From NCBI GenBank assembly GCA_050178035.1, contig JBFXGK010000014.1, forward strand, positions 8,649-72,648: DNA of 64,000 bases. The letters run 5' to 3'. Below, in pieces: positions 4,322 to 62,477 of this stretch. Position 1 is the stretch's first letter, and each line of letters starts with the position of its first letter. A program made the translations under genes and the position numbers. The DNA is from Kiritimatiellia bacterium (GTDB taxonomy: Bacteria; Verrucomicrobiota; Kiritimatiellia; JAKQHR01). The notes beneath the pieces are model-generated. The model was given only the letters and a program-made list of their open reading frames with translations, was not told the origin of the DNA and searched no databases.

Positions 4322-4436
4322 ATTGAAATTTTGCAAAATTCGTCAAATTATGGCCAATTTTGGCGGTTTTTGAGCATTTTGGGCCGTTTTTTGGCCTTTT
4401 TTGAGCATTTTTGACCATTTTTTGCGCATATTTTGC
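4322..4436 (+). repeat. Phased T-tract repeat block, curved-DNA-like (family copy 1). Built from TTTTTGGCCR / TTTTTGAGCA units.
   Basis: T4-6 tracts start at about 4357, 4366, 4376, 4386, 4396, 4407 and 4417, a period of about 10 bp. Homologous blocks occur at five other loci. Confidence 0.8.
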
Positions 4437-4498: not shown

Positions 4499-5761
4499 AT
4501 GGCTTTTGATAAAATTAAGGTTCCGAAAACAGGCGAAAAGATCACGATGGGCCGCGACGGCAAACTGGTCGTTCCGGATTTCCCCATCCTTCCGTTTATC
4601 GAAGGCGACGGCATCGGCCCGGACATCACCCGCGCCGCGATGATCGCCTGGAACGCCGCCGTTGAAAAAGCCTACAAGGGCGAACGCCGCATTTCGTGGA
4701 TGGAAGTCTATGCCGGCGAAAAATCCGTCAGCGTCTACGGCGACGGGGTCTGGCTTCCCGATGAAACTATTGCCGCCATCCGCGAATATCTCGTGGCCAT
4801 CAAAGGCCCGCTCACCACGCCCGTCGGCGGCGGCATCCGCAGCCTGAACGTCGCCCTGCGGCAGCTTCTCGATCTCTATGTCTGCCTCCGCCCCGTGCGC
4901 TGGTTCGCAGGCGTCCCCTCGCCCGTCCGCCAGCCCGAGCTGACCGACATGGTGATTTTCCGTGAGAATTCCGAAGATATTTATGCGGGCATCGAATGGG
5001 CCGCAGGCACACCCGAATGCAAAAAGGTGATCGAATTCCTGCAGAAGGAAATGGGCGTCAAAAAAATCCGCTTTCCGAACTCCTCCGGCATCGGCATCAA
5101 GCCTGTCTCCGAGGAAGGCACGCGCAGGCTGGTGAAAGCGGCCATCGAGTACGCCATTGACAACAGCAGGCCCTCCGTAACGCTTGTCCACAAGGGCAAT
5201 ATCATGAAGTTCACCGAAGGCGGCTTCCGCGACTGGGGCTACAAGACCGCGAAGGAACTTTTCGGCGCGACGCCGCTTGATGGCGGGCCGTGGCATAAAC
5301 TTAAAAGCCCCAAGAGCGGCAAGGATATCATCATCAAGGATGTCATTGCCGACGCGATGCTCCAGCAGATTTTGACGCGCCCGGCGGACTACGATGTGAT
5401 CGCCACGCTGAACCTCAACGGCGATTATCTCTCCGACGCCCTCGCCGCCTGCGTGGGCGGAATCGGCATCGCGCCCGGGGCCAACATCAACTACGACACC
5501 GGCCATGCGGTCTTCGAGGCCACCCACGGCACCGCACCCAAGTACGCGGGCAAGGATCAGGTGAATCCCGGCTCGCTGATTCTGTCCGGCGAGATGATGC
5601 TCCGCTACATGGGCTGGACCGAGGCCGCCGACCTGATTCTGGATTCCATGAGCAAGACCATCTCGCAGAAGCGCGTGACTTATGACTTCCACCGCCTGAT
5701 GGAAAATGCGACGCTCCTGAAATGCAGCGAGTTCGGACAGGCCCTGGCGGAGAACATGTGA
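4499..5761 (+). CDS. icd: NADP-dependent isocitrate dehydrogenase.
   Basis: Dimeric IDH signatures are conserved across the full length ([36 protein letters not shown]). An RBS precedes the ATG at 4499. Confidence 0.9.
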
Positions 5762-7407: not shown

Positions 7408-9558
7408 CTATTCTTGCTGCTCGACCACGCGATAGAAAAGTATTATATCTTCACGTATTGGTTCAGATATCGAGTGGATGATGTTGGTAGCAAGTATATC
7501 AGAATAAATGTTTGTCCAATTAGAGGGGTTGAGTGATGTGGCATATTCCACATCATAAGTTTCTCCCGTAAAGGCGACCCATTCAAGCCTCAAGTCCGCT
7601 TCAGTCCGTATTAGGTCTATTGCCGGACGATCCATAAGTAGATGAACTGATTTCTTCGTATTCGTAAAAACAATGGGGTTGGCATAATATTCTGCTGTTG
7701 TTTCATCGAGGTCTACAGCACCATTCCCGTTTGCATCTAAAAAAGCAAATAGATAATAATTCTGATCACTTGTAAGATTTTGAAAGTTAAATGAGCCGGG
7801 GCCGGGAAGCACCACAACATTTGGATTTGGCCCCCAGCTCAATGCAACCATGTTAGGCGATTGAACTGGATAGGAAATCCGAGACAGTTCTCCGCCTGTT
7901 AATACATTTATTGTTTTAAGATATCTGTTGCCCGCATCGTAATCTGATGTAAATACACGCAATACTCCGTTTGGATCAAAATCAAGATCCCACATATCTC
8001 CACAACAACTCGGATTCGATACAAGTGCACTTGCCCCCGTCCATGAAACATTACCCACGGTTTTACTCAAATGATAGAGTCTTCCGGACCACTCATCACT
8101 GCACCAGAGCATCCCGTCCTCATCGATGTCATTGCCCAATATGCTTAACAATCCCGTCTGCTGGCCAGGATTGACATCTCTGGCAGTTAGCGCCACAGTG
8201 TCTATCTTCTTCAGAGTTCCTTGTGCTGTTGCAGTTTCTTCATTCACCGCATAAATAATATCGTTAGTATCAAAAGAAATAGATGTGAATTTCCCACTAA
8301 TTGAATGCCGCATAATAGATGATCCGGTGCTCCGATCAATCGAATATAATTGATTTGATACGCCAGCCACAGAGAGCCATAAATTTGCGTTGCGATCAAT
8401 ATCCATTGTTTTCAACCCGCTATGATTGACACCTATTGGGCCGACAGGATTTACCTCACCATTCACAGGATCAATGGTGACTAGATTTGTTGAGTTTTCG
8501 TCAATACTATACAGAGTCCAGTTTAGAGATGGCAACGAACCATTTGTTGTTAAAACAACCCAACACAATCCGGTAGATGCCCCTCCGTACAAGAACTCCC
8601 CATAAATTGATGCATTTGTAATATCAGGTATTACATTCCACGTGGCCGTTGCTGCGCTTGTAAAGTTTGAATAGTATTTATAGTAGGTTTCGACCCAATA
8701 ATAGTACCGTTGCCCAGTCATCACCGAACCGTCGTTATAAGAGAACATTCCTTTAACCCTCCAGGTTAATGATGTAGCAGTCGGTAAATTGCTTACAGTG
8801 TTTCTAAACACACGATAATATAAACCGGTAAATCCATTCCATGACAACAAGATGTTTGTTTCCACACCCTCTACGGCCTTAAAATCTGATGCTTTTGGCA
8901 CTGGGGCACGAACCTCCCATTGTGAAGGACTAAATTCACTTGTTCCATATTCAGTGCGCGCCTTAATCCAATACCAATATATTATCGACGGTTGAGCAGT
9001 ATAATCATTGTAGGTTGGTACTGTACATTCTCCAATTTTCACCGCTCCCGCAGGTTCGTTGATGGTACTCCGCCATACATCATATGCAACAAGCGGAACA
9101 CCCCCGCTCAACCAATACCATTCGAGTTCGATATGATCAGAATACGTACTTGAATAAAGATCATGCGGTGGTGCGGGTGTAGAATAATTGGTATTTCCCG
9201 AAGAAACATCGGCAAGAAAATATATGTAATACGCACCAGTATCAGGCGAATATGTCGCCTGTTTAATTTCTTCAGATACAAAAGTAGTGCCGTAATTGTC
9301 TGTAATTCTCAGTTTAAACCAAGCGGTTGCATTCACACCCGGACTTATATCCGGTTCACCTCTATATACACTTCTATCATAATCCTCATACAGCACCCAG
9401 TTGGCATTTACATTTTGATAATATAATTCCCAGTCCACACCAAGAGGAAACGGGTCTGGAATGCAATCAATCGAAATATGCGTGTATGCAAAAGATGATG
9501 ATCCCAGTAAAATATAGAAGAGGATTAACGGGCACCACCTTGCTTGAAACACCTTCAT
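7408..9558 (-). CDS. Large secreted protein (FN3-like repeats plus a beta-propeller-like region) encoded in a low-GC island. C-terminal FN3-like tail ending LFYRVVEQQE.
   Basis: The ORF is visibly AT-rich compared with its flanks. N-terminal hydrophobic signal (MKVFQARWCPLILFYILLGSSSFA). Rich in W and Y. No recognisable enzyme motif. Confidence 0.45.
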   Translation of the reverse strand: MKVFQARWCPLILFYILLGSSSFAYTHISIDCIPDPFPLGVDWELYYQNVNANWVLYEDYDRSVYRGEPDISPGVNATAWFKLRITDNYGTTFVSEEIKQATYSPDTGAYYIYFLADVSSGNTNYSTPAPPHDLYSSTYSDHIELEWYWLSGGVPLVAYDVWRSTINEPAGAVKIGECTVPTYNDYTAQPSIIYWYWIKARTEYGTSEFSPSQWEVRAPVPKASDFKAVEGVETNILLSWNGFTGLYYRVFRNTVSNLPTATSLTWRVKGMFSYNDGSVMTGQRYYYWVETYYKYYSNFTSAATATWNVIPDITNASIYGEFLYGGASTGLCWVVLTTNGSLPSLNWTLYSIDENSTNLVTIDPVNGEVNPVGPIGVNHSGLKTMDIDRNANLWLSVAGVSNQLYSIDRSTGSSIMRHSISGKFTSISFDTNDIIYAVNEETATAQGTLKKIDTVALTARDVNPGQQTGLLSILGNDIDEDGMLWCSDEWSGRLYHLSKTVGNVSWTGASALVSNPSCCGDMWDLDFDPNGVLRVFTSDYDAGNRYLKTINVLTGGELSRISYPVQSPNMVALSWGPNPNVVVLPGPGSFNFQNLTSDQNYYLFAFLDANGNGAVDLDETTAEYYANPIVFTNTKKSVHLLMDRPAIDLIRTEADLRLEWVAFTGETYDVEYATSLNPSNWTNIYSDILATNIIHSISEPIREDIILFYRVVEQQE

Positions 9559-9586
9559 AAGCCACCGATGATTATAATGCACGTGA

Positions 9587-9808
9587 TCATTTTCGCTTAC
9601 TTATTCGTATTGCATATTCATCTGCATTATTTGGATTCACCTTAATTTTTTCAAAAGTGAAATCTGAATTCTTCTTTATGCGTTCTTGCTCCACTTCACG
9701 GGCAAAAGTTTCGGGATCAATACTCATTCCATCTAAAGTTTGCGTGGAAACCACAACACTATCGTTTGCTCCAAGAAGATCCAGTATCGTTGCTTCAAAA
9801 CTCTTCAT
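9587..9808 (-). CDS. Small hypothetical protein, co-oriented with and 5 bp upstream of the island's large secreted protein.
   Basis: 73-aa ORF with the same low-GC composition, sitting tightly upstream of 7408-9558. Confidence 0.35.
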   Translation of the reverse strand: MKSFEATILDLLGANDSVVVSTQTLDGMSIDPETFAREVEQERIKKNSDFTFEKIKVNPNNADEYAIRISKRK

Positions 9809-10752
9809 TTGTGAACCCTTTCCATATGTCTCCCTTTGTTCATTCTAGGTTGAGGGGTCAGGTCTCAACGGCCTGTACATTGAAACATTTTCCTCATCAG
9901 GCTCCTGATTCTGCTGCTCATCTCCCGCTCAAAAAAGAAACCGCCCGCGAGGCGGTGGTTCTCTTAAAGGTAGGGCGCGCACTCCGTGCGCGCCGCGGCG
10001 GTCACGGAGTGACCGCCCTACCCATGAAATCAAACATTTCATGTCGCCGCATACATGCCCCGCACAACCCGCTGTCTGCGTCCCTCGCATGTTCTGTTTA
10101 TCCCATTCGCCGGCCTTCCGATCAAGCTCTATTCGCTATCGGATGCCGCTCACAGAGCGGCTACTACAACACAAACACATGCCGCCTGGTGTAGTAGCGC
10201 CTCTGTGAGGCGCATCATCCATTCCCTATTCAGATTTTAACCATTAAGGGCATGAAGTTCATGAAGGAAAGACGAATATTCTTCCATCCGTGGGCCGCCT
10301 TTGGCATCCGTGGGGAATTTTCTTTCTCTCCTCATCTTTTCACGGAAATGCAACGGACAGGAAAAGCTACGAATGGAATTATGATATTCGCCGCTTTCTT
10401 CATTCGCTGCCAATCGCTTTTGCATACGCGTCCAACACGCCTCGCGCAAGGCTTCGCAGGACACGTCCGTGGTTTCTTTTTTCTTCATGCGCTTCTTGTC
10501 TTCATGGTGAAATCTTGTTTTGGTTGAGGATTGAAAATGAATCAGAAGATGGACAGGACAGAGCCCGTCCCTCCATGAACCGTCTCGATCGCGAGCTCCC
10601 TTCCCATTCGCGCAGGTTCGCGGTTCCATCTTTGGTTGCGGTCTGCCCCGCGGCTTTATCCGTGCAGCATTTTCTGCCACTCGCCGCTTGGATTCGGGTT
10701 TCCTCCAGTATAAAGTCCGCGCTCATGAGAACAGGGCTTTTCCGGCCCAACT

Positions 10753-17945: not shown

Positions 17946-18080
17946 CATTTTGGGGCTATTTTTCATGTTTTTCACTGTTTTTGAGCATTTTTGACCAAAA
18001 AATGGCCATTTTTTGCGATTTTTTGGCATTTTGGGCCTTTTTTTGCCAATTTTTGACACTTTTTGACAGCCGCGCGTCCG
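17946..18080 (+). repeat. Phased T-tract repeat block (family copy 2).
   Basis: Eleven T4-7 tracts at about 10-bp spacing. Shares the word TTTTTGAGCATTTTTGACCA with copy 1. Confidence 0.8.
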
Positions 18081-20022: not shown

Positions 20023-20049
20023 CGCCCGCAAAAGTTCCAACCATTGGAA

Positions 20050-20137
20050 GTTTTGCCGGAAAAAGTTCCAATCATTGGAAGTTTTTGCGCGGAAAGTTCC
20101 AATGATTGGAAAAAGTCTGTTCATCCGCGTTTTCCAT
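20050..20137 (+). promoter_or_regulatory. Triple tandem array of the pseudo-palindrome AAGTTCCAA-N3-TTGGAAGTTTT (period about 31 bp), immediately upstream of the murC-like gene.
   Basis: Copies lie at about 20050-20074, 20081-20107 and 20113-20137. The core has 6-bp arms TTCCAA / TTGGAA with a 3-nt spacer (CCA, TCA, TGA). Confidence 0.6.
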
Positions 20138-29109: not shown

Positions 29110-29198
29110 AAAAGTTCCAACCATTGGAAGTTTTGCGTAAAAAAGTTCCAATGATTGGAAGTTTTTTGGAGAAAAGTTCCAACCATTGGAAGTTTTGA
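29110..29198 (+). promoter_or_regulatory. Second triple tandem array of the AAGTTCCAA-N3-TTGGAAGTTTT pseudo-palindrome, immediately upstream of the glycogen synthase gene.
   Basis: Copies at about 29110-29134, 29140-29167 and 29172-29198. An extra half-site CATTGGAAAT lies at about 29096. Near-identical to the 20050-20137 array. Confidence 0.6.
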
Positions 29199-34740: not shown

Positions 34741-34862
34741 GATTTCCAATAAGAAAATCGTTTCGGGGTGTTTTTGCCATTTTTTGGCCGTTTTTGGGCG
34801 TTTTTTTGTGTTTTCGGCCATTTTTTGGCCATTTTGGTGCGTTTTTTGGCGTTTTTTGAACC
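34741..34862 (+). repeat. Phased T-tract repeat block (family copy 3).
   Basis: TTTTTGCCATTTTTTGGCCGTTTTTGGGCGTTTTTTTGTG... with tracts every 9-11 bp. Confidence 0.75.
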
Positions 34863-34953
34863 TTCAGGACGCGGAGACTGTTTCTCTTGTTATTATTCCT
34901 TTGTCAGAAAAAACTCAAACGGGTACCATATAGGCGATGGGAGGTGACGAAGC

Positions 34954-43381: not shown

Positions 43382-43394
43382 CATAAAAATAGCG

Positions 43395-43500
43395 AAAATA
43401 TGCGAAAAGCGACCGTTTTTCGCGATTTTTTGCTGTTTTTGGCCTTTTTTGGCGTTTTTGAGCCAAAAATGAGCAATTTTGGCCGTTTTTGGCCGTTTTT
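43395..43500 (+). repeat. Phased T-tract repeat block (family copy 4).
   Basis: CGTTTTTCGCGATTTTTTGCTGTTTTTGGCCTTTTTTGGCGTTTTTGAGCC...GGCCGTTTTTGGCCGTTTTTT. Confidence 0.75.
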
Positions 43501-43503
43501 TAA

Positions 43504-46164
43504 CTATTTTGAGGCGTCTGTGTTAAAGCCGGAATTTTCAGCCTGGATCTGTCCCTGAGACAGTTCGCTCTTCAACTGCTCAACCGGACGCTGCTTCAAA
43601 TCCTCGATGGCCGCAGGGTCATTGCGCTGGGCCATGATCATCCAGCTCACTTTTGCGCCCGCAACGCCTCCGCCGACCACAAAGCGGTTCCCGCTGATTT
43701 CTTCCTTCACATACAGATTCATCTGCGCGCCCACGGGCGTCAGGAGATATTGCGGATTGATGTTCAGACGGTCGAAGTAAGCCGGAAGCTGCACAACGGC
43801 TTCACCATTTGCATCCAGCACTTCGGTTCCGTTGTAGATATTCTGGACCACCGGCCCCTCTGCGCAAAAATGCCGCAGCACTTTGTTTTCCGGGTCCAGC
43901 GGGTGATCAATGACAAAAGCTTTTGTGCTCCAGGCTCCAGTGCCGAATGTCTGGCGGTATTTGATGTTGGCATCCGCTGTACCGGTGCCGTCAATATAGA
44001 GCGTTCCGCGCACCGCCGTGCTGTTGTTATATAAATTAGTGATATTGTGCCCGATGGCAATGCGTTCGCTTCCATATGCTGTGCTGGCCCCGGCACCAAT
44101 GGCAATATTCGTGGAACTGGCCTGGGCTCCATATCCAATGGCCACGCCGGGACCAATGCCGGAATTTGCCGATCGGCCAACGGCAACGCCGCCGTTATAA
44201 CGCGCATTGGCACTGGGTCCCACTGCAACTCCACCACCATAATCGGCCATGGAACTGCTGCCGATGGCAACACCAGCATTGGAATGGACATTGGCCAAAT
44301 AGCCGATAGCTATGCCTGAGGCATGTGCATTGGCACCCCGTCCCACGGACACAGCATAACCATCCGCATTCGCGCCTGAGCCCAACGCCGTGGCGTTAGT
44401 AAGCGCAACAGCCTGATAGCCGACGGCCGTATCATACTGCTTCATAGCGCGGGCTTCAGATCCAATGGCCACAGACATGTTGGTTGCCTTGGCCAGATGA
44501 CCAATACCCACGGAGTAACTGAAACCTGTGGCGCCTGTGCCCATGGCGACGCCCCACCAGGCTCCATTGGCCGAGCTGCCCAGCGCAACCCCGCTCCATC
44601 CGTTCGCATCGTATCCGATCTCAATCGCACCACCCGGAGAGTTGGTGATGACAAGTTCGCCGCCGGCGCCGATATTGAATCCCAGAGCACCGGTCATCTG
44701 ATCGCCCGACACCTGAACATACTGCGATGGATCGCCAATGAGATTGCTCCAGCTTCCAGATCCAAAAGATGAGCGATAATAAATTCCCGTTCCGCCATCC
44801 AGATAAAGCGAACCGCGAATGGCGGCCGTATTGTTGATTGCGTTGGTGACATTGTGGCCAATGGCAATGCGTTCGCTTCCCGCACTGGCCCTTGCAGCCG
44901 CACCGATGGCAATGTTGGTTCTCGCACTGCTGAGGCTGAGGCTGTTGGCGGCGGCATCATTGATCGTCAGTGTGCCCGTCATGGTGTCGCCGGTTTTCTG
45001 CACAAAGCCTGTAGTTGAGCCGCCGCTGGCCAGCGCAGTCCACACCCCGCTTCCGAAGTTAGTGCGGAAATACACATTTGACCCGCCATCCAGAAACAGG
45101 GTGCCCCGCATGGCCACGGCGTTGTCCTGGGGAGTGGAAACCGCATGCCCGATGGCAATGCGCTCTGAACCCACGCCGGATGCCGCCATCCATCCGATGG
45201 CAATGTTGGTTGATGCTCCGCATGCGGAATTGCCGATGGCAATGCCGGTATTGTCGGCATCGGCAAATGCGCCGACCGCCACTCCGGCAAGAGATCCGTT
45301 AGCACTCCGGCCCACCGCCACTCCGGCGTTGTATCCATCGGCGGCTCTGCCGATGGCCGTGCCGTTGTTGCCCCCGTTGGCGTTTGCGCCCACCGCGGCG
45401 CCGGACCAGTAGCCGAAGGCGCCGTAGCCAAGGGCCGCGCCCATCTGGCTGCCATCCGCATAGGCGCCCACGGCGGCGCCCGTAATGCTTCCGTCACTGT
45501 TGTAGCCAACGCCCGCGCCGTAATCGGAACCGGCTGCCTGCGAACCAACGGCCACGCCCCGTGAGGACCCGTACGAGTTGTTGCCGACGCCCACGCCATA
45601 AGCCGATCCATTCGCCGTATTGCCGACCGTTGCCCCGTAATTGAAAGCATTGGCGTCAAATCCAACGGCTGCACCGTAGGAATTTCCGTTGGCGACATTG
45701 CCAACCATGACATCCTGCCCTGAGCTGGAGATAATCAAGTCGCTGCCGGCCCCGGCGTTCATGTGAAGCGGCCCGGTCATCGTGTCCCCGCTTTTCCGGA
45801 CGGCCGTGATGGCATAAGCCACCTGATTGATTTGCTCACGCGGAGACAGAGTGACACCGTTGACCGCCACCTCGATATAAACAATGGGATTCGTCAGTGC
45901 CGAATAAAGAGTGGGTGTCAGGGCGTTGATCCCAATCGTGGTTGAATAGAGTCCGTCCACGGCGGTTACCTTCTGGGTCTCGGCATATAGAAGCGTTCCG
46001 CCCGCGGAAGCATTATAAAGCCGAAAAACGTTGGTTACTGTACCGTTTACGAGATTCGTGCCAACAATCAGCCGACCCTGGTAATTGAACTTCGTATCGG
46101 TTTCCCCCGCATAAACAGCAGAAACCGCGAATGCGAGAAGAACTGCAAACATCAACCTCTTCAT
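43504..46164 (-). CDS. Giant secreted Gly/Ala-rich repeat protein (YadA-head-like NIAIG/ERIAIGH repeats). Adhesin or tail-fibre-like.
   Basis: Signal peptide MKRLMFAVLLAFAVSAVYA. Dozens of xAxGxxAxG repeats. Recurring TNIAIG(A/W)xAxx(A/G)SERIAIGH(N/A)(V/I)(S/T). Confidence 0.6.
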   Translation of the reverse strand: MKRLMFAVLLAFAVSAVYAGETDTKFNYQGRLIVGTNLVNGTVTNVFRLYNASAGGTLLYAETQKVTAVDGLYSTTIGINALTPTLYSALTNPIVYIEVAVNGVTLSPREQINQVAYAITAVRKSGDTMTGPLHMNAGAGSDLIISSSGQDVMVGNVANGNSYGAAVGFDANAFNYGATVGNTANGSAYGVGVGNNSYGSSRGVAVGSQAAGSDYGAGVGYNSDGSITGAAVGAYADGSQMGAALGYGAFGYWSGAAVGANANGGNNGTAIGRAADGYNAGVAVGRSANGSLAGVAVGAFADADNTGIAIGNSACGASTNIAIGWMAASGVGSERIAIGHAVSTPQDNAVAMRGTLFLDGGSNVYFRTNFGSGVWTALASGGSTTGFVQKTGDTMTGTLTINDAAANSLSLSSARTNIAIGAAARASAGSERIAIGHNVTNAINNTAAIRGSLYLDGGTGIYYRSSFGSGSWSNLIGDPSQYVQVSGDQMTGALGFNIGAGGELVITNSPGGAIEIGYDANGWSGVALGSSANGAWWGVAMGTGATGFSYSVGIGHLAKATNMSVAIGSEARAMKQYDTAVGYQAVALTNATALGSGANADGYAVSVGRGANAHASGIAIGYLANVHSNAGVAIGSSSMADYGGGVAVGPSANARYNGGVAVGRSANSGIGPGVAIGYGAQASSTNIAIGAGASTAYGSERIAIGHNITNLYNNSTAVRGTLYIDGTGTADANIKYRQTFGTGAWSTKAFVIDHPLDPENKVLRHFCAEGPVVQNIYNGTEVLDANGEAVVQLPAYFDRLNINPQYLLTPVGAQMNLYVKEEISGNRFVVGGGVAGAKVSWMIMAQRNDPAAIEDLKQRPVEQLKSELSQGQIQAENSGFNTDASK

Positions 46165-46299: not shown

Positions 46300-46360
46300 G
46301 CAATTCTGGGCGTGCCTATTCATTTTTGAGCATATTTGAGCAATTTCCGGCCGGCTTATA
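46300..46360 (+). repeat. Short member of the T-tract repeat family (copy 5), next to the island boundary.
   Basis: CATTTTTGAGCATATTTGAGCAATTT shares the TTTTGAGCA word. Confidence 0.5.
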
Positions 46361-46390: not shown

Positions 46391-46450
46391 AAGGGGGAAA
46401 ACTGGTAGAGGCGCAGGGACTCGAACCCTGGACCCGCTGATTAAGAGTCA
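46391..46450. repeat. attL-type direct repeat: duplicated 3' 48 nt of tRNA-Lys plus about 10 nt downstream.
   Basis: 46403-46450 is identical to 55571-55618. The flanking GGGGAAAACTGG matches GGGGAAAAACTGG. Confidence 0.85.
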
Positions 46451-46537
46451 ATAGCATACGTGCATTTAATGGGCTTTTTTTGATTGACTGTCTCAAAACT
46501 TGCTGTAATGTCCGGGGATATGTAGTCATATAAGGCA

Positions 46538-47899
46538 ATGGAACGCAATAGAGGAAAGGCGGCTAAAATGACACGGAAGCACCGGACCGGGAACTTATAC
46601 AGGCGGGGAAATGTTTGGTGGCTCAGGTACATGGTGGAGGGTAAAACCGTTTATGAATCCCTGCACTGCACCAGCCGGGATGATGCCGAGAAGGAGCGCA
46701 AGCGGATCATGCGCCCCTTGATGGCCGCCGACAAAGCCGACGTGCTGGCCAATATCTCAAAGCGACTGACCGACGCGAAGGACGAACAGGCCGCCGCCAA
46801 CGAGGAAGCCAATCCCCCGCTGGCAATCGCCGCCGCTTGGGATGCGTACTATGACAGCAAGAGCCGTCCCGATTCATCGGAGAGAACGCTGGCCGGATAT
46901 GAGAGCGCATGGAAAAGATTCAAGCGGTGGATCGAGAAGGAACACCCGGACATCAAACAGATGCGCGATGTTTCAAAGAACCTTGCCGCCGCTTACGCAA
47001 AAAAACTTGAAGCTGATGGAGTGACCGCCAGCACGTTCAACCAGCATATCGGGCTGATGCGTCTGGTATGGCGCACACTGGCAGAGGAGATTCGCGCAGG
47101 TTCAAACCCGTGGATGGACATGCGCCGGAAGAAACTCGGAGCGCAGAAGGTGGCGCACCGCCGCCGCAATCTGACACCTGAGCAATTTGATACCCTTCTA
47201 AAATGCGCTGGCAGTGCAGACATGCACGACCTTCTTTTTACTCTTGGATGGACTGGCCAGCGTCTCGCGGATATTGTTCTGTTGAAATGGAACTCAATAG
47301 ATTTCAAGCGTAAGGTTGTCACGATTCACCCGCTGAAATTGCGGCGCACAGGCAAGGAGGTTCATATTCCCCTGCTGCCACAGCTTGCGGATATTCTCAG
47401 AATGAGAAAGCGGAACGCCGCCGGGCCTCATGTGTTCCCCGAACTGGTGGAAGATTATCAGCGTGATCCGTCAGCACTGAGCAAGCGGATTGCCGCCGCC
47501 TTTGACAAGGCCGAACTGAACCCCCGCGAAAAACTGCCCGGAGTATCTAGGGCCGTTGTCGTTTATGGGGCGCATAGTCTGAGGCACTACTTCGCAACGC
47601 AAGCCCTTGCCGCAGGGATACCCTCCGAGATCGTGAAGCGAATCACCGGACACACCAGCGACACCATGCTTGCCAACTACGAGCATTTGGATGCGCGATT
47701 TATCGGAGAACTGGCGAACAAGCTACAGGCTCAACCACTGAACCCGCAGAAGCAAATCGCCGCACCGCCAGCGCATGAAGATAATCCCCTGCCCCCGTGG
47801 GCCGCGAAAATGATCGAGGGAATGACAGCAAAGAACTGGAAGAAAGTGAAAACCGAACTGCTCAAGATTCATGCGGAACCACAGGAGGCCGGACAATGA
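46538..47899 (+). CDS. int: Tyrosine site-specific integrase.
   Basis: C-terminal catalytic region HSLRHYFATQALAAGIP...ITGHTSDTMLANYEH (R, HxxR, Y). Confidence 0.85.
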   Translation: MERNRGKAAKMTRKHRTGNLYRRGNVWWLRYMVEGKTVYESLHCTSRDDAEKERKRIMRPLMAADKADVLANISKRLTDAKDEQAAANEEANPPLAIAAAWDAYYDSKSRPDSSERTLAGYESAWKRFKRWIEKEHPDIKQMRDVSKNLAAAYAKKLEADGVTASTFNQHIGLMRLVWRTLAEEIRAGSNPWMDMRRKKLGAQKVAHRRRNLTPEQFDTLLKCAGSADMHDLLFTLGWTGQRLADIVLLKWNSIDFKRKVVTIHPLKLRRTGKEVHIPLLPQLADILRMRKRNAAGPHVFPELVEDYQRDPSALSKRIAAAFDKAELNPREKLPGVSRAVVVYGAHSLRHYFATQALAAGIPSEIVKRITGHTSDTMLANYEHLDARFIGELANKLQAQPLNPQKQIAAPPAHEDNPLPPWAAKMIEGMTAKNWKKVKTELLKIHAEPQEAGQ

Positions 47900-48972
47900 A
47901 AAAGAAATCCTCACAGAACAAGAACCGCAAGCCCAAAAATATCAGCCTGTCTCTTGACTGCTTCGGGCTGTCAAACGCGGTGCATCCATATAGTGGAGAA
48001 GTTGGCGGGCAGGGAGAACAAGAGCGCATGAAGTGCAAGAAATGCGGCGGGCTGGCAATGTGGTACGGGGATGCAAATAACCCTGCCGCGCTGTATGTCA
48101 AATGCAAGAAATGCGGATGCCGCGAATATGATGTCGTGCCAAGAGAAGAGATTATTGATGATGGCGAAGGGGAGTTGAGAAAGCCACTGTCAAAAGCTGA
48201 TGCGAAGGCGGCGCGTGATGCCATATCGAAGGCAGAGGACAGCATGAGGGCGGCGCACAGCGTCTTGCTGAAATATGCCGGAAGCTCAGACTACGACATT
48301 GCCGCATATGCAATGCGCGTCCTGCTGAAAGAAACTCTTGCGCTTACTCAAAACGCGTCCGGTCTGTCTGGTGGAACAAATGCTGAGCTGGTGATGGCAA
48401 TCGCCGCGCAAAGTCATCATTGGCCTGTTATGGTGGGCATTCAACCCGAAAGCTGGAAGGCCGCAAGGAAACAAATCGAACGTATCGGACTTGGAACCAG
48501 AATCCCCATTGCTGAACAGTACCGCAACAAGAAAGCATTCAAACCTGATCGAGCCACAAACGCCATTGCATGGGAGATACTGCAAACAATTATAAAGACC
48601 CGCGCCGAGGTTCAGCAGTACGACCGGAACACCCTCAAGCATGGCCGCCTGAACGGCGAACCTGTGCCGGAATGGGTTTGCCTTTGTCGGGATCTGCCAG
48701 CACTGACACCCGATAAGAATATCCTGAAAGATTACCGCGATCTTGCCCGAAAGCACATTGCCACCATGAAAGCAAAAAGAGTTTCCAAGCATGAAACCGC
48801 TTTTGAGCTTCTTCTGCGAACCGCCGCCCCTGAATGGTTTGATTCCATTTGGGGCCGATGCACTGACGAGACAAGCCGGAAGAAAAGCAATCGCACTACT
48901 CGCGGCGCACTTCGTAAAAATGCCGAGGATGATATTCTGTCCGCACTGGTCACGATAGCAAAGAACCTTTGA
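47896..48972 (+). CDS. Hypothetical protein with an N-terminal C4 zinc ribbon. Translationally coupled to int (ATGA).
   Basis: CKKCGG...CKKCGC motif. No other recognisable domain. Confidence 0.4.
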   Translation: MKKKSSQNKNRKPKNISLSLDCFGLSNAVHPYSGEVGGQGEQERMKCKKCGGLAMWYGDANNPAALYVKCKKCGCREYDVVPREEIIDDGEGELRKPLSKADAKAARDAISKAEDSMRAAHSVLLKYAGSSDYDIAAYAMRVLLKETLALTQNASGLSGGTNAELVMAIAAQSHHWPVMVGIQPESWKAARKQIERIGLGTRIPIAEQYRNKKAFKPDRATNAIAWEILQTIIKTRAEVQQYDRNTLKHGRLNGEPVPEWVCLCRDLPALTPDKNILKDYRDLARKHIATMKAKRVSKHETAFELLLRTAAPEWFDSIWGRCTDETSRKKSNRTTRGALRKNAEDDILSALVTIAKNL

Positions 48973-49096
48973 CCCGTTTCCGCTGGTGAAAAAACAGGGG
49001 GCATTTTCACCCCTGCACCTCATTAGGACTTTTTGCGCCTATCCCATATTTTTCCCGCAGTGAGATTGTGAGTCTCAAAACACAGAAAGGGAAAAT

Positions 49097-49372
49097 ATGA
49101 GCAACAACATTGAACTTGCGCGACTGGCCGTTGCGGGACTGACGGCAAAGGATAGGGCCGTCCTGCTGAAAGACTTAACCCCGGCACAGCCGACCGAACA
49201 GCGACTTGTCCGGCGCAGGGAGGCCGCCCGTCTGCTGGCGTGTTCTGTGCGAACCATAGACCACTACGTCGAGAAGGGACTGCTTCGGCGCGTATCGGTT
49301 CCGGGGCTTAGCCGAGCAATCGGATTCAGACTGGCCGACGTTCAGGCAGTCATTGACGGGCGGGCCGCGTGA
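49097..49372 (+). CDS. AlpA/excisionase-like MerR-type HTH DNA-binding protein.
   Basis: RREAARLLACSVRTIDHYVEKGLL..GFRLADVQAVI. Confidence 0.6.
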   Translation: MSNNIELARLAVAGLTAKDRAVLLKDLTPAQPTEQRLVRRREAARLLACSVRTIDHYVEKGLLRRVSVPGLSRAIGFRLADVQAVIDGRAA

Positions 49373-49656
49373 CTGCCGCCACGTTATCCACGAAAGCCCA
49401 TGAAGGCCGTTCGTGGGATCAAAAACGTGAGGAGGAGCTTCAAAGAGTCAATGACGAAGCCCCCTCATGCCTAAAGACCTTCAAAGCCGCTTTTGGTGGG
49501 AAATCCCTTCGCGCCGGAATCAATGCTATGTGCCTTCAATGCACCTGCTTTGACCGTCTCTACATTCGGGACTGTCCCTCATCGAACTGCGGCTTGTGGC
49601 GTTATCGCCCGTTTCAAAAAATGAAGGGCCGGAGCCAGAAGGAGAGCAACCCATGA
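49369..49656 (+). CDS. Small Cys-rich hypothetical protein.
   Basis: Overlapping start. CLQCTCFDRLYIRDCPSSNC. Confidence 0.3.
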   Translation: MTAATLSTKAHEGRSWDQKREEELQRVNDEAPSCLKTFKAAFGGKSLRAGINAMCLQCTCFDRLYIRDCPSSNCGLWRYRPFQKMKGRSQKESNP

Positions 49657-49844
49657 AAGCGCATTGCCACATTTGCCAGCGCGAGACAGAAACCGCAATC
49701 CTTCAGCTTCGTGGTGGACTTGGAAATTGTTGCTCAGTCTGCCGAACCTGCCGGAAGGGAAAACCGTACTTCTCGAAGTCTGAAGTTTCAGCACTAACGG
49801 CCAAAGGCCAGAGGGTGGAACATGAACAGCACGAAATCCGATAA
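49653..49844 (+). CDS. Small zinc-ribbon protein.
   Basis: CHICQRE...CCSVCRTC. ATGA overlap. Confidence 0.3.
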   Translation: MKAHCHICQRETETAILQLRGGLGNCCSVCRTCRKGKPYFSKSEVSALTAKGQRVEHEQHEIR

Positions 49845-51081
49845 CCGCCCGACCAACTTTGACGGAATCACCGTCTCAATGGTTGCGAACTGCCAGCGCA
49901 CAAAAACCAGCGACGTTTCCTTTATGGCGGTGCTAAACGATATTCAGGCTGGCCGCTGGCGCGAAAAAGTTGAGGCCGTTCGTGAAGCTCAGTTGCAACA
50001 CGGAAAGCCTGCCGCCGATGCCCTAAAGAAGAAACTGCCCGCCGTTCTTTTCAGTGGAAAGTTTTCCCGGCGCGACAACGCTCACTTGCTGGAACACTCC
50101 GGCTTTATATGTGCCGATCTGGACGACTTGAACAGTGCATTGAGCCGGATACGCCAGCGCGTCGAAAGCGATCCGCACACCTTCGCTTGCTTCCTATCGC
50201 CCAGGGGAAACGGGCTGAAGGTTCTCTATCGCGTCCCGGCAAGCACTGATAACCACAAGGCGGCATGGAATCGCGTCGCGGCATACATTCGCGAGAACTA
50301 CAGCGTCGAGACAGACCCGACGTGCAAGGAAGTTGCCCGGCTGTGCTTCGTTTCCTTTGACCCCCATCTATATCTGAAACATGAGGCTGAAAACATCAAG
50401 TGTGATACAGAGGATACAGCACACACAGACAATTCAGCATATCCAGCAAATTCATGCCATGTGGGGGAGAAGGGAGTTGCCCCCAGCGCCCCCCGCCCCC
50501 CCACAACCGAAAAGGGGGCTATATTAGCTGTATCACACTCGGAGAAGGTGCAGCAGATCATCTTGCAGACTCAACCGAGCTTTGGAGGACAGCGGAATAA
50601 AAAGGTCTTGAATCTTGCACGCGGCCTGAAACTCGATGCCGGGCTAAGTGATGCGCCAAAATCCGAACTGAAAAAAATTGTCCGCGAATGGTTCCGGCTG
50701 GCACTTCCTCATATCAAGACCAAAGATTTTACGGAAACTTGGGCTGACTTTGTTTACGCATGGGATCGTGTTCGCACACCACTTTCAGAAGGGGCCATTA
50801 TTTCTGCTTGGCACCGAGTTGAAAGCGAACCGTTGCCGGAAGTGTGCGAGGCATACGCTGACAATGAGCGGGCAAGCCGCTTGTTGGCTCTCTGCTGGCA
50901 CCTGAAACGACAAGACGGCACCTTTTACCTGTCTATGCCACAGGCCGCGAAACTGCTCAAGATGCACCCTCATCAAGTTTTGCGGTTTTTGAAAATGTTT
51001 CGCGCCGACGGACTGTTTAGCATAATCGAAAAGGGCCAGTTGGAAAAAAGAAAAGCAACGCTGTACAGGTGGACGAAATGA
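49822..51081 (+). CDS. Replication/primase-associated protein (VirE-N / BT4734-like N-terminal domain).
   Basis: LPAVLFSGKFSRRDNAHLLEHSGFICADLDDL...FLSPRGNGLKVLYRV pattern, typical of VirE-N domains of phage/ICE primases. Confidence 0.45.
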   Translation: MNSTKSDNRPTNFDGITVSMVANCQRTKTSDVSFMAVLNDIQAGRWREKVEAVREAQLQHGKPAADALKKKLPAVLFSGKFSRRDNAHLLEHSGFICADLDDLNSALSRIRQRVESDPHTFACFLSPRGNGLKVLYRVPASTDNHKAAWNRVAAYIRENYSVETDPTCKEVARLCFVSFDPHLYLKHEAENIKCDTEDTAHTDNSAYPANSCHVGEKGVAPSAPRPPTTEKGAILAVSHSEKVQQIILQTQPSFGGQRNKKVLNLARGLKLDAGLSDAPKSELKKIVREWFRLALPHIKTKDFTETWADFVYAWDRVRTPLSEGAIISAWHRVESEPLPEVCEAYADNERASRLLALCWHLKRQDGTFYLSMPQAAKLLKMHPHQVLRFLKMFRADGLFSIIEKGQLEKRKATLYRWTK

Positions 51082-51566
51082 CCGCGCCGCCTGTGCTGAA
51101 CATCGTTTGCGATTCCAGAGAGCAACTGCCCTTTGCCTTCGCTGGCTATCCCGTGGAAGTGACAACCGGAACCCTGGAGGCCGGGGACTACAGCCTATCG
51201 GGATTCACGCGGCGCATTGCCATAGAGAGAAAAGCCCTGTCCGATCTGGTTGGCTGTCTGGGCGGTGAACGTGACCGCTTCGAGAGAGAGCTTGCAAGGC
51301 TCCGGGGTTATGACTTCGCCGCCGTCGTAGTCGAAGCCCCTGCCGAACTGCTGCAACAGGGGCGGTATCTTGGCAAACTGGATTGCAAGGCCGCATGGCA
51401 AAGCGTTCTGGCGTTCAGTCAGCGATATAGATTGCCGTTCTACTTTTGCCGGGACAGGGACGAAGCCGAAGCGGTTTGCTTAGACCTTTTGCGGCATTAT
51501 GCCCGTGACCGCTGGAAAGAACTTCGGGCTTTAACAGACAAACCAAAACAGAAAGGATCAATATGA
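51069..51566 (+). CDS. ERCC4-type (XPF/Mus81-like) nuclease.
   Basis: CDSREQ...GDYSLSG...IERKALSDLVGC matches the ERCC4 signature (GDx(n)ERKx3D). Confidence 0.55.
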   Translation: MDEMTAPPVLNIVCDSREQLPFAFAGYPVEVTTGTLEAGDYSLSGFTRRIAIERKALSDLVGCLGGERDRFERELARLRGYDFAAVVVEAPAELLQQGRYLGKLDCKAAWQSVLAFSQRYRLPFYFCRDRDEAEAVCLDLLRHYARDRWKELRALTDKPKQKGSI

Positions 51567-52177
51567 CCACCGAGAAAACCACGAACAACACCCCGCTTGA
51601 CCCGTCACAGCCGCTATCAAATGCCCGCTATGAAACTATGTGCGAGTTACGGGTTAATGATATGCCTCAGCATGAGTGCTATTCAAAGACAGCAGACAGG
51701 CGGATTAAAAAGAAAACCGCTATGGTTAGAGCGTCTGAAATCTTTTCCCGCCCCGACGTTCGGGCGCGTTTGAATTTCTTACGTTATGAAGCGATAAAGG
51801 CCAGCCAGCAACCGCCCGCGCCCTTCATGCAAACAATTCGGGATCAACTGGACGGGAAAGCCCCACTGTCCAGCGGCGACATGATGGAGCTTGCCCGTAA
51901 AAAGGCAGAACAGGCTTTAGCATTGGCCGAGACTCCGCAAGATGTTGTGAAGGCGGTTCAGGTCTGCCGTGATTTAGGCGTGATAACTTCGGGAGACAGC
52001 GACGACGTAGACCCCACCGCCGTTTTAAGATATGTTCTTTCATGCGCTGGCAAGGACGGCCAAACGATTGTCAGGGAGCTTGGCGGGTTGCGGTTTATGG
52101 TGGACTCATTCTGTGACATTTGCAAGGTCAGCCTGGACGATCTACACGAGATCACGAGGCCAGCGGTCAAAGAGTAG
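51563..52177 (+). CDS. Terminase small-subunit-like protein.
   Basis: ECYSKTADRRIKKKTAMVRASEIFSRPDVRARLNFL resembles the TerS pattern (AGYSxKTA...A..L...P.V...I). Confidence 0.4.
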   Translation: MTTEKTTNNTPLDPSQPLSNARYETMCELRVNDMPQHECYSKTADRRIKKKTAMVRASEIFSRPDVRARLNFLRYEAIKASQQPPAPFMQTIRDQLDGKAPLSSGDMMELARKKAEQALALAETPQDVVKAVQVCRDLGVITSGDSDDVDPTAVLRYVLSCAGKDGQTIVRELGGLRFMVDSFCDICKVSLDDLHEITRPAVKE

Positions 52178-52761
52178 ACATAATCGGCATTATTAACGAC
52201 ATGCCATAAAACCCCAATAAAACCGCATGTTTTTTCGGGTAGTATTTTTGAACCACCGTGTTTTTTGTCGTTTGCATAATTATGTCCGTTGAAAACCGTC
52301 CGCATTTTGAGGCGGTGGGGCGATATGCAACCGCCCGGCTTGCCCTTGCCCTATGTGGTTTGACAGTGTAGAACGTTCATAATTGCCGCGCCTGTGCTCG
52401 CAACAGGATCACACCAGCAGAGAGATCGAGGCGCAACGTGTGAGGATTTGGGAACGGATAGAAGCGGGCCGCATACCTTCAAGCGTTACAGGCAAGACAC
52501 CAGCACAGCGTCAGCGTGTCGTCGTCGGCGGTGTTCATCATCGTGGACACAGGACAATCATTGTCATTCAATAGACACCCCCCGGAGGGGGCTGCCAGCA
52601 CTCTTGATATATATATATGCCCCGTTCCCGAAAATTTAAAAATTGACAAAATGTGTCACACATAAAAGCGAGGATAACGCGTTGCAGTTGACAATAACAA
52701 ATGCAGGTGGCCCGACAAACTGACGTGCGCTGTCAAAACTATTTTCCAGCCCCGGTTTCGG

Positions 52762-53382
52762 CTAGTAGAACCGGCGAGGGCTGGAGGTGGCGGCGGGTGT
52801 TTGCTTTTTCTCTTTTGGGGGCTGAACGGGAGGAAGCCTTTCCCGCCTGTTTATACGAACAGGTTTTCCCTCGACGTGTCCCATCCATTGTCCATACCCA
52901 TCATCTTCTAAATATTCATAGAAACTTTCTGGGTAGCCCAGCCGCAGCGCACTATATTCAATGCGGCATTTTGAAAGATCATCTTTAAAGCGGATGTCTA
53001 TAATTCTGACATCATCTGTTTGTCGTTTGAGTTCCCAATATTCCGGCATTCTATACAATGGATTCATCAACAGAATCACCTTTACGGCTACGACAATGAT
53101 CACCAATGCAGCTGGGATGATCCATATCAGCGATCTTCTTTTGAAAAGTCGTTTAGTGATGATTTTTGCCTGTCCTTCTCGCGAAATGGGAACTTCTATT
53201 TTCTCTTGTGGAGAACCCGTTCCCGTCGGAGGTTGTGGAATCGTGATAAGCTGGCCGCAAGCGGGACATTTTATACTTTCACCAACCATATCTCCGGGGG
53301 CTTCCATACTCTGTTTGCAACGCGGGCAATTGAAATTCACTTCTGTCATGTTCATCTCCAGTGCATGGTTTGCATTCGTCAA
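52762..53382 (-). CDS. Zinc-ribbon membrane protein (cargo gene 3). Paralogous N-terminus to 54301-55089.
   Basis: FNCPRCKQSMEAPGDMVGESIKCPACGQLITIP, then one TM helix and a C-terminal domain. Lower GC than the host. Confidence 0.45.
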   Translation of the reverse strand: MTNANHALEMNMTEVNFNCPRCKQSMEAPGDMVGESIKCPACGQLITIPQPPTGTGSPQEKIEVPISREGQAKIITKRLFKRRSLIWIIPAALVIIVVAVKVILLMNPLYRMPEYWELKRQTDDVRIIDIRFKDDLSKCRIEYSALRLGYPESFYEYLEDDGYGQWMGHVEGKPVRINRRERLPPVQPPKEKKQTPAATSSPRRFY

Positions 53383-53478
53383 TGCTATATCCCGTGCTTG
53401 AGTCCGGCAACTGTTTCATTCGTGATGCAACACACTTTCGGCCGGTATATTATGCGCCTTATCTTTATATGGCGGTCG

Positions 53479-54240
53479 TTACCAAGAATATGATGAACGG
53501 CCGCCCATCCTTGTGATCCAACTTGTGCCGACTGCCGTCAATACTGGGCCGGTTTCTTTTGCGCCATATTCATTTACCAGTGTCCCCGTTGATACAAGAA
53601 CATACAAAGAACTAGGAGGAGACTTGCCCCCTTTTTTATACCATTTGTGGCCGATGTCGGCAGGAATCAACACGACCGCAACAGTCACACCCGAGCCATA
53701 ATTCGCGGAATAGTATTCCTTGGATTCTTGACGGGCATTGGCGCGGGGGAAACCGATCTTGATTACCTTCCCTTCCAAATCAAACATATTTCTATATATG
53801 TCGGCCCCGGTGTAGGTTTTATTGCTTGAGGGCGGAGGCACCTTGCTAGATGTTTCTGATGAACTGCTATCGGTCTGGTCGCTTGAATCACCAGCACTTG
53901 CCTCCGCAGACTCAAACTGTTTTGCGCGCTTTTCTAAATCGGTTGGCTGCGATTGAACCTTTTTCAAGTATGCCGCCTGTGCCTGCGAAGACTGTCGTGA
54001 ATAAGCCGCTGCCTTCTGCGGATCATATCCATATTTCTTTTGTATCTCCTCCGGCAACTCCCAAAATGGAATCTTAGCGATGCCGCCTGCGTGGGAGAAG
54101 GAAATGCCATCGGGTTCGACCCGTGTGATTCTGGCATTTATATAGGTCTTGCCTTTTGATGTTGTGATGTCCTCGGCGGGAATGGAAAGAGCGGCAAATA
54201 GCGAAATAATAATGCCAAATAGTGTATTCTGTATCTTCAT
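53479..54240 (-). CDS. Secreted Ser-rich hypothetical protein (cargo gene 2).
   Basis: Signal peptide MKIQNTLFGIIISLFAALSIPA. Low-complexity S/Q-rich linker. Confidence 0.4.
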   Translation of the reverse strand: MKIQNTLFGIIISLFAALSIPAEDITTSKGKTYINARITRVEPDGISFSHAGGIAKIPFWELPEEIQKKYGYDPQKAAAYSRQSSQAQAAYLKKVQSQPTDLEKRAKQFESAEASAGDSSDQTDSSSSETSSKVPPPSSNKTYTGADIYRNMFDLEGKVIKIGFPRANARQESKEYYSANYGSGVTVAVVLIPADIGHKWYKKGGKSPPSSLYVLVSTGTLVNEYGAKETGPVLTAVGTSWITRMGGRSSYSW

Positions 54241-54300
54241 AGCCGATCTCCTAAAATGACGAACACCTTTCCATACAGCAGCCCATGAGAAACTATGTTG

Positions 54301-55089
54301 CTATTGTGATATTAGACCCAGGAATAGAAAGAACAGCAAAATACCGCCGATGACCATTACCCCAAGACAAGAGCAGGATGAATTCTTGCTCCTATCGTCA
54401 CTCCCGGCAACTCCAGATTCTATTAGCTTTTCTCTGTATGCGAGAGCCTGTTCAATCATGCTGCTTGCTTGTCCTATCCCAAGAGTGGATAAGACTGTCT
54501 GATCTTTAAATCCAAGAGCGATCAGATAATCAATTTGTTTTTGCGTTGCAGGTCTTTCATTTGGTTCACGTTTAGGGCATTTCAATTTACGACTCAAATC
54601 AGGGGCATATTCGCCCTGTAGCTTTTCTTTCCGATAACCCCGATCAAGTTCTCCCATCTCCTTTAGATATGACGCCCTAATTAATGATGGAAAGAATTCT
54701 GTAATCACATCTTCAAGAAAATATTCATCCGCGCATAATTGTTCTGCATGTTCCTCGACATATTGAAAAATCTTCTTTTTCTTGGCCTCAGATATGTTCT
54801 TAACCACCTCATTGGCATATAGGTCGTAAAGGGAAGCTTCGTAGTCATTTTTGAAATCGACCACATATTTACTGACAGCGGGCTTACGGGTTTTCTCGAT
54901 TGCGGGTGGTTTCTTCGGTGCTTTCTTTTTGCGTGTTCTGGGTGAATCGGCATCAGGCTTCTGCTGTTCTGGAATACTAATAGACTGCTTGCACGTTGGG
55001 CATTCAATATATTCCCCCGCCATCTCCGGCGGCGCTTCTAGGGGCTGCTGGCAATGGGGACAACCAAAAGCAATATCAGTCATTCTCAT
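54301..55089 (-). CDS. Zinc-ribbon protein with a C-terminal TM anchor (cargo gene 1).
   Basis: FGCPHCQQPLEAPPEMAGEYIECPTCKQSISIP. C-terminal LGVMVIGGILLFFLFLGLI. Confidence 0.45.
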   Translation of the reverse strand: MRMTDIAFGCPHCQQPLEAPPEMAGEYIECPTCKQSISIPEQQKPDADSPRTRKKKAPKKPPAIEKTRKPAVSKYVVDFKNDYEASLYDLYANEVVKNISEAKKKKIFQYVEEHAEQLCADEYFLEDVITEFFPSLIRASYLKEMGELDRGYRKEKLQGEYAPDLSRKLKCPKREPNERPATQKQIDYLIALGFKDQTVLSTLGIGQASSMIEQALAYREKLIESGVAGSDDRSKNSSCSCLGVMVIGGILLFFLFLGLISQ

Positions 55090-55352
55090 TTCCTCCCGTA
55101 TGCGGCTTGCATGAAAAGGATGCTAGACCCGCCCCCATTATGCAGTCAAGCCGAACATTCAACGTGAAAGAGAGGACCGGGAATAGAATCCGCTCGTTGA
55201 CCCATCGAGAGAAACCGAAGAACTCCCCGAAGTAATGGTATGACCGCCCCCGCCCCGCTTTGTGTCAGGGATGGCCGAGACGGGCCGCCGTGACCGCCAG
55301 AAACGACAATCACCCCCAGAGAGGTATCAACACCCTACCCGCTCCCCGGCCT

Positions 55353-55452: not shown

Positions 55453-55570
55453 TATCCGCGAAAAGCCATTGAGAGCAAAAAAAGGCAACAAGGGCAAATG
55501 GCGATATTCGTTTGACTATTGCAAATATTGATCGAAATACAGTTTTTCCCACTGTGTTCATTGGGGAAAA

Positions 55571-55646
<76 letters not shown>

Positions 55647-62472: not shown

Positions 62473-62477
62473 ACTTT

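Follow-up and report, generated by a model that had tools for sequence, protein, structure and literature searches.

Phased T-tract arrays of 60-130 bp were found in about one third of the longer intergenic gaps of the 64-kb window (the whole stretch of DNA analysed here) from a Kiritimatiellia bacterium. On a dinucleotide wedge model the arrays are predicted to be intrinsically curved intergenic DNA with sharp bends. Copy number and content of the repeat units vary between close strains; phasing and position stay. With middling confidence, the arrays are interpreted as curved architectural elements at promoters and transcription-unit boundaries, made by local 10-bp duplication and kept by a constraint on phasing. 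The feature belongs to known curved-DNA phenomena. What sets it apart is its regularity, a unit vocabulary shared as in a family, and its single polarity: curved DNA between bacterial genes is usually a weak statistical signal, whereas the modules described here are discrete, near-perfect and easily recognised.

Array composition and predicted curvature

For array detection, both strands of the whole window were scanned for at least three T4+ runs with 8-12 bp between their starts. Seven T-arrays were found on the + strand, merging into five strong blocks (arrays 1-4 and 6, Table 1), and only one A-array (3 units, 43385-43408) on the opposite strand, adjoining block 4; about 0.055 arrays per window were expected by chance on average (composition-preserving local shuffles). 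The motif TTTTTGRSCR was observed 14 times against 2.1 expected, a count reached by 0 of 100 shuffles, and 13 of the 14 matches lay on the + strand within the blocks. All six blocks listed in an initial annotation of this DNA were present at their coordinates; the family of six copies held for the five strong arrays, and the remaining copy (block 5, 46300-46360) was marginal, with just 2-3 units. The tract starts that had been quoted for block 1 were off by one (true starts 4358, 4367, 4377, 4387, 4397, 4408, 4418), and the GC content of the window was about 0.57-0.58, not the 60% given for the genome.

The strong arrays carry 5-13 T4-7 runs each, as curved phased A/T-tract DNA does, and their unit length agrees with helical-repeat spacing (mean 10.16 bp, sd 0.82; 10-11 bp in 76% of units). 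For the 97 units collected from the window and its relatives, lengths of 9, 10 and 11 bp made up 15, 51 and 27%, respectively, and the modal T-run length was 5. Period-10 arrays were reported by TRF at all five strong sites, together with higher-order periods of 20, 30, 31 and 41 bp. The measured period of 10.2 bp supersedes an earlier figure of 9 bp, and with it the claim that a 9-bp period keeps reading frames open: on the minus strand blocks 1 and 3 are indeed stop-free, and the other blocks contain stop codons.

The blocks share words of 20 nt (blocks 1 and 2), 26-27 nt (blocks 1 and 6, depending on block bounds) and 22 nt (blocks 3 and 6), the first of which confirms a match already noted between copies 1 and 2. 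When units were shuffled among arrays, the top three common words (summed length 68, shuffle mean 51) were longer than expected (P<0.001), and the longest common word by itself gave P = 0.02. Unit order is therefore shared beyond unit shuffles, as anticipated by the view that the blocks are homologous and not chance AT-rich spacers; it lends modest support to common descent or to sequence exchange between arrays.

Curvature was predicted with a dinucleotide wedge trajectory model and Bolshoy-Trifonov parameters. The five strong arrays gave the five highest predicted peaks of the 64 kb (155-174 degrees per ~90 bp, array 1 being the highest; window background median 24 degrees, 99th percentile 86 degrees), with end-to-end/contour ratios of 0.18-0.48. 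An apparent sixth peak at 63948 was an end-of-window artefact. Both the 10.2-bp phasing and the position of the strong blocks at the top of the predicted-curvature list sustain the curved-DNA reading of the initial annotation. Brukner et al. (1994), a study cited in PMC3402463, reportedly found that A-tracts bend toward the minor groove and GGCC toward the major groove. The dinucleotide wedge model gave no support to T5+GGCC as the combination of maximal curvature: GGCCA stood at the 44th percentile and GAGCA at the 95th among all T5N5 units.

Table 1. Positions of the arrays and of other features in the window. Scan intervals and run numbers are from the array scan; bends are predictions of the wedge model.
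Feature	Position	Strand	Scan interval (runs)	Predicted bend (degrees)	Description and context
Array 1	4322-4436 (core 4358-4436)	+	4358-4423 (7)	174	8 T-runs at ~10-bp spacing in core; between PilZ-domain gene (stop 4269) and icd
Promoter-like box TCGACA-N17-TATAAA	4440-4468	+			4 bp 3' of array 1, 31 bp 5' of icd ATG
icd (isocitrate dehydrogenase)	4499-5758	+			ATG 4499
Low-GC stretch	7408-10200				GC 0.43 at 8-10 kb; 724-aa minus-strand ORF
GC-rich terminator	14309-14282				Ordinary terminator
Array 2	17946-18068	+	17948-17992 and 18009-18064 (5+6)	173	2 bp past hybrid histidine-kinase stop (17944); 59 bp before PD-(D/E)XK nuclease ATG (18127)
Palindrome CAAAAAATGGCCATTTTTTG	17996-18015				Perfect, 20 nt; separates array 2 sub-arrays; formed by one inverted unit, T-runs after
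31-bp repeats, first site	20030-20111				Three tandem units; 5' of Mur-ligase-family gene
31-bp repeats, second site	29110-29197				Three tandem units; 5' of glycogen synthase gene (ATG about 29213)
GC-rich terminator	34500-34473				Ordinary terminator
Promoter-like site, array 3 flank	34711-34682	-			For tRNA-Met
Array 3	34741-34862 (core 34771-34862)	+	34771-34857 (9)	155	9 T-runs in core; between divergent promoter-like sites
Promoter-like site, array 3 flank	34901-34929	+			For 107-aa ORF (ATG 34955, GGAGG ribosome-binding site)
Array 4	43385-43510	+	43416-43459 and 43477-43510 (5+4)	163	Fills whole gap between SprT-like gene (+, stop 43381) and 886-aa gene (-, stop 43504-43506)
Block 5	46320-46346	+		96	Marginal, 2-3 units (CATTTTTGAGCATATTTGAGCAATTT); 3' of tRNA-Lys remnant
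Integrative island	46398-55620				9.2 kb, in 3' end of tRNA-Lys(ctt)
Direct repeat, island bound	46398-46450				53 bp; partial tRNA copy
Tyrosine integrase	46538-47899				Island gene
Direct repeat, island bound	55568-55620				Exact 53-bp copy; within intact tRNA
tRNA-Lys(ctt), intact	55573-55648	-			Island in its 3' end
Array 6	62383-62479	+	62383-62479 (10)	158	10 T-runs; fills gap between NFACT-R gene (+, stop 62370) and 497-aa gene (-, stop 62478-62480)

Gene context and turnover in relatives

Neighbouring genes were named from Pfam scans and translations; the product of icd is 100% identical to a protein of a Kiritimatiellia MAG. Three strong arrays (1, 2 and 3) lie upstream of + genes and two (4 and 6) between convergent genes; in line with the claim that four blocks are 3' of + genes, blocks 1, 2, 4 and 6 begin 53, 2, 4 and 13 bp past a stop codon, respectively. 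The first part of array 1 (4322-4357) is made of degenerate AT-rich units. Its T-runs fall at about -44, -55, -65 and onward relative to the start site inferred from the TCGACA-N17-TATAAA box, all on one helix face, as in upstream phased A-tract activators and UP elements; the first two coincide with the positions of UP-element subsites in E. coli. The box was absent from the consensus scan list because TATAAA lacks the T required at position 6 of the second hexamer, and its tight link to block 1 had been overlooked in the initial annotation.

Regarding a position directly 5' of a -35 element, array 1 has its box 4 bp downstream and array 3 is plausible; no consensus sigma-70 promoter was found by the consensus scan between array 2 and its downstream gene, and arrays 4 and 6 are convergent. 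Array 2 consists of two sub-arrays (17948-17992 and 18009-18068) and reads TTGACA at its 3' end. Inverted units occur inside blocks 2 and 4. Array 4 starts with three A-type units (43385-43408), followed by T-type units (43413-43510), and its minus-strand neighbour encodes a surface-type protein. Arrays 4 and 6 both touch or overlap the stop codon of the minus-strand gene, the final T-run doing so in array 6.

For the icd array, relatives with ICD 95-97% identical were compared (loci L119-L125 and L129-L136). In every close relative examined, the array was directly 5' of icd, ended ~4 bp before the conserved box, and the box kept equal spacing in all array-carrying relatives. On the upstream side five contexts were found: the PilZ gene, an unrelated gene, the CotH/LTD gene directly, a 270-bp spacer, or an IS element; the distance from the array to the upstream gene ranged from 24 to 271 bp. 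The number of T-runs was 7, 8, 11 or 13, with promoter-proximal units kept and distal units variable. No array was present over 21 kb in relatives with ~80% ICD identity.

Array 4 was compared with one metagenome locus, L137, found via its SprT-like protein (86% identical). The same convergent junction carries an array there, with A-type units after the + stop and T-type units up to the minus stop, and with different unit sequences. Block 5 is identical in L137, beside an intact tRNA-Lys. Array 2, including its palindrome, is kept in 97%-identity relatives (L266-L268) and was not found in a 79%-identity relative (L269), in which the upstream gene differs. Array 6 is identical in a same-strain contig (L139) and is absent in 84%- and 79%-identity relatives, where the downstream genes differ. 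A non-orthologous array was present in two 79%-identity relatives, L143 and, up to the contig end, L144: it lies 5' of a minus-strand sulfotransferase gene. The corresponding site in L142 has the first two units of this sulfotransferase-upstream array, then unrelated sequence.

Between strains whose genes share 90-92% DNA identity, alignment of the arrays gives just ~70%. The array family is confined to a narrow clade, in which quick internal turnover is combined with retention at particular junctions. Since arrays 2 and 6 occur only in very close strains and distant Kiritimatiellia are array-free, the arrays are dispensable.

Metagenome contigs of several separate assemblies stop at an array or no more than ~120 bp from one (starts of L119-L122; ends of L131 and L144), and several stop inside an array, which suggests that the arrays break short-read assembly; this, together with the spurious ORFs that they create, matters for MAG annotation of the clade. 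IS elements (rve-type, ISL3) and Y1_Tnp genes lie beside or near arrays at L129 898-1875, L143 9775-11001, L142 11320-11450 and L130 5157-8234; Y1_Tnp genes are found near the icd locus in relatives, and one Y1_Tnp gene near arrays carries a DnaA_C domain. The arrays may be hotspots of insertion or rearrangement.

Polarity, phasing constraint and competing explanations

In the six window arrays and in the L143 array one and the same strand is T-rich (the + strand of the window or the syntenic strand), so the same-strand orientation described originally is real and is also seen in an additional array, not orthologous to any in the window, at a syntenic locus of a relative. The orientation of three arrays, those upstream of + genes, may be no more than that of the gene, and the evidence of six out of six is thinner than it appears. 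The L143 array is upstream of a minus-strand gene, yet T-rich on the plus strand, and a fixed orientation relative to the promoter is thus not required; together with the two convergent arrays and block 5, this case shows that the downstream gene does not determine polarity. At third codon positions, C and A are enriched on the + strand whatever the gene direction (skew components -0.075 for GC and +0.084 for AT), the usual signature of a lagging strand. The T-runs therefore oppose the background AT skew.

For the assessment of phasing constraint, T-run and spacer lengths were compared over 82 units and were found to be negatively correlated (r = -0.64). The variance of unit length (0.67) was below that of all 10,000 permutations of spacers among T-runs, and when permutations were held to the 8-12 bp detection range, the minimum variance (0.77) was still above the observed value. 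Array 2 and its ortholog in 97%-identity relatives differ by 5 substitutions in 123 bp (4.1%, similar to the 6.4% at third codon positions of the downstream gene), with 0 indels across 11 homopolymer T-runs. Length compensation and the lack of indels together make the helical period look constrained. Because substitutions at T-run borders produce compensation automatically, the real signal is the absence of indels, and a 10-bp unit decaying by substitutions alone could show the compensation with no selection at work. The missing indels suggest, short of proof, that spacing is under selection.

An array is a series of 5-13 T4-7 tracts set one helical turn (10.2 bp) apart by short G/C-rich spacers. 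In the mechanism favoured here, it would arise and turn over via local duplication and loss of 10-bp units, and would persist in intergenic DNA because of the apparent constraint on helical phasing. For arrays 1, 2 and 3, taken to precede promoters, the bend would present phased A/T minor grooves to RNA polymerase, and may fix the tip of a supercoiled loop just 5' of the -35 element, raising or setting promoter activity. At arrays 4 and 6 the same module would fill convergent gaps, with array 4 adding a putative hairpin-plus-T-run terminator made from inverted units. Phased A-tract curved DNA upstream of bacterial promoters, with UP-element-like activating curvature, is established.

Curved segments of at least ~70 bp pin plectoneme tips, with a predicted signal that peaks ~100 nt 5' of prokaryotic start sites (PMC6301789); that paper and PMC9825172 both discuss curvature 5' of start sites. 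According to work by Bolshoy and colleagues, in the summary given by PMC4060949, bent DNA is in excess at promoter and at terminator intergenic segments, and an excess of that kind fits the mixture of promoter-proximal and convergent arrays observed here. Against this mechanism, nothing lies downstream for two of the five strong arrays to activate; the orientation of the L143 array, the lack of a consensus promoter after array 2 and the narrow conservation of arrays 2 and 6 also speak against it. With units that vary between close strains at kept phasing and position, the arrays would make the lineage a natural experiment on curvature itself, as opposed to a bound protein, in the setting of promoter strength and supercoil geometry.

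The main rival, which we consider somewhat unlikely, is that the arrays are non-adaptive minisatellites: lineage-specific products of slippage or duplication that are tolerated in intergenic DNA, with curvature as a by-product and polarity derived from strand-asymmetric mutation via replication or transcription. Such minisatellites would explain the quick turnover of unit number and content, the restriction to a narrow clade, and the occurrence of all arrays on one strand regardless of gene direction. The TRF periods of 20-41 bp are typical of segmental duplication, and the contig breaks (L119-L122, L131, L144) and the IS or rearrangement junctions (L129, L142/L143) point the same way. What they would not explain is the lack of homopolymer indels at 4% divergence, a period variance below every permutation, the array 4 layout kept despite sequence change, and the persistence of the icd array through five different rearrangements on its upstream side, each of which left it adjoining the promoter box.

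We consider it decidedly unlikely that the lineage has evolved its own bacterial version of the C. elegans PATCs. In that case the arrays would be self-propagating, strand-polar helical-repeat minisatellites with a sequence-encoded mechanical function at transcription-unit boundaries, as topological insulators or by pinning supercoil tips, and with their polarity set by replication direction or transcription-coupled mutation and not by neighbour genes. PATCs derive from Helitron minisatellites, remodelled to the helical repeat, and are proposed to act mechanically, not as protein-binding motifs (bioRxiv 10.64898/2026.08.08.743475). They are the closest conceptual parallel, being likewise minisatellite-like, of helical-repeat period and curvature-encoding (bioRxiv 10.64898/2026.08.08.743475). 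PATCs are eukaryotic, largely intronic, chromatin-related and transposon-derived, whereas the present arrays are bacterial and intergenic, and no parent mobile element was found for them; no cognate transposase gene was detected among the 20 window ORFs scanned.

The make-up of the spacers bears on a third explanation, in which the arrays would be bound by a protein specific for a 10-bp direct repeat (T-run plus G), either a ring-shaped or filament-forming regulator or a spreading nucleoid-associated protein. The spacer consensus is G-R-S-C-R, with a G directly after the T-run in 72% of the 97 units, unit order is common between arrays beyond chance, and the 10-bp register places all units on one helix face. 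Set against this, the spacers are highly heterogeneous (~40 kinds among the 97 units), orthologous arrays change unit sequence freely while phasing stays, and neither the window nor the relatives revealed a candidate binding-protein gene with a link to the arrays; this explanation is held to be highly doubtful. An iteron/parC-type array was rejected: the units are heterogeneous and the neighbours are metabolic, signalling and surface-protein genes.

RNA folding was compared with shuffles on both strands. Arrays 1, 2, 3 and 6 folded no better than shuffles (z = -0.1 to -1.6), and contain no stable hairpin with a U-run directly after it, as in an intrinsic terminator, apart from weak single hairpin-plus-T-run matches in arrays 1, 3 and 6. 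A stable hairpin with a U-run was found in array 4 (z = -4.7 on the + strand, -3.9 on the - strand) and in its L137 ortholog (z = -2.7 and -5.5): in array 4, base pairing between A-type and T-type units forms a long hairpin whose centre is at 43401-43424, and T-runs follow it. The consensus scan counted five terminator-like sites there where 0.9 would be expected, one hairpin being terminator-like on both strands. This module inside block 4 had escaped the initial annotation. A general-terminator reading was rejected, since fold z-scores were not significant in four of five arrays and canonical GC-rich terminators occur at other sites of the window (Table 1).

Polar stop or pause signals for plus-strand transcripts, in which repeated U-runs and weak GGCC-loop-GGCC hairpins would act on polymerase coming from the upstream + gene, are very improbable: four of the five strong arrays do start 2-53 bp past a + stop codon, array 4 does have its strong hairpin followed by T-runs, and arrays 1, 3 and 6 do have their weak matches, but the other four arrays fold like shuffles, ordinary terminators occur elsewhere in the window, the icd array stays with the downstream promoter at a variable distance from the upstream gene, and the L143 array has no upstream + gene.

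Known systems and other features of the window

The arrays resemble UP elements and upstream curved promoters in that A/T runs at helical-turn spacing lie directly 5' of a -35 element. An UP element is typically ~20 bp, whereas the arrays, with 7-13 phased runs, extend over 60-130 bp, also occur between convergent genes, share a unit vocabulary among sites, and have no fixed orientation (L143). With the intergenic A-tract clusters of prokaryotes (Tolstorukov et al.; Kozobay-Avraham, Hosid and Bolshoy), as these are presented in PMC4060949, they have in common phased clusters of ~100 bp at the 5' and 3' ends of genes. In that account the clusters are weak genome-wide statistics, whereas the arrays are discrete, near-perfect tandem repeats, lineage-specific and of single polarity.

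Like REP/BIME and MITE elements, the arrays are short, dispersed, intergenic, lineage-specific and assembly-breaking; unlike them, they vary in length and content and are without conserved ends, terminal inverted repeats or a palindromic unit. Comparison of the array flanks revealed no shared element ends or terminal repeats (chance 9-14-nt matches only, all E >= 0.012). Because flanks and terminal repeats are not shared and four of the five arrays lack significant palindromic or RNA structure, a REP/BIME or MITE reading was rejected, and with it the REP-like element put forward in the initial annotation. Rfam identified four tRNAs in the window and nothing else.

When genome contigs were scanned with a three-unit pattern, the matches listed came from unrelated taxa and were mostly period-9 or period-12 repeats. 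Period-10 arrays of the T-run/GGCC type (4-7 units) were also seen in MAGs of unrelated bacteria, and contigs of phages and giant viruses gave such arrays too, some with at least 5 units: L008, L010 and L075 (Chloroflexota MAG Bse_22), L100 5758-6317 (Dehalococcoidia), L017, and the viral contigs L149, L165, L192, L207, L232 and L233. The search pattern required TTTTGRSC, so these outside matches are no independent evidence for convergence on GGCC spacers. A conserved flank, GACACGGTTTTGGGGCGAGTTTTGGCGG, is common to the arrays of the Chloroflexota MAG and suggests a mobile element in that genome.

Besides the arrays, the window contains an integrative island bounded by exact direct repeats (Table 1). 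It encodes the tyrosine integrase, a BT4734-like_N protein and an ERCC4 nuclease, and its GC content is 0.48-0.54 over most of its length (window ~0.58). The island site is empty in L137, and L142 carries the BT4734-like_N/ERCC4 pair upstream of syntenic aminotransferase-NDK genes.

A stretch of low GC (7408-10200) holds a minus-strand ORF with a weak DUF4394 match, and may have been horizontally acquired. A second repeat family was found at two sites, where each of the 31-bp units contains the palindrome AAAAGTTCCAAYCATTGGAAGTTTT. These triple repeats resemble operators at which a dimeric regulator would bind three times, at a spacing of three helical turns; the two sites rank 7th and 9th among the curvature peaks.
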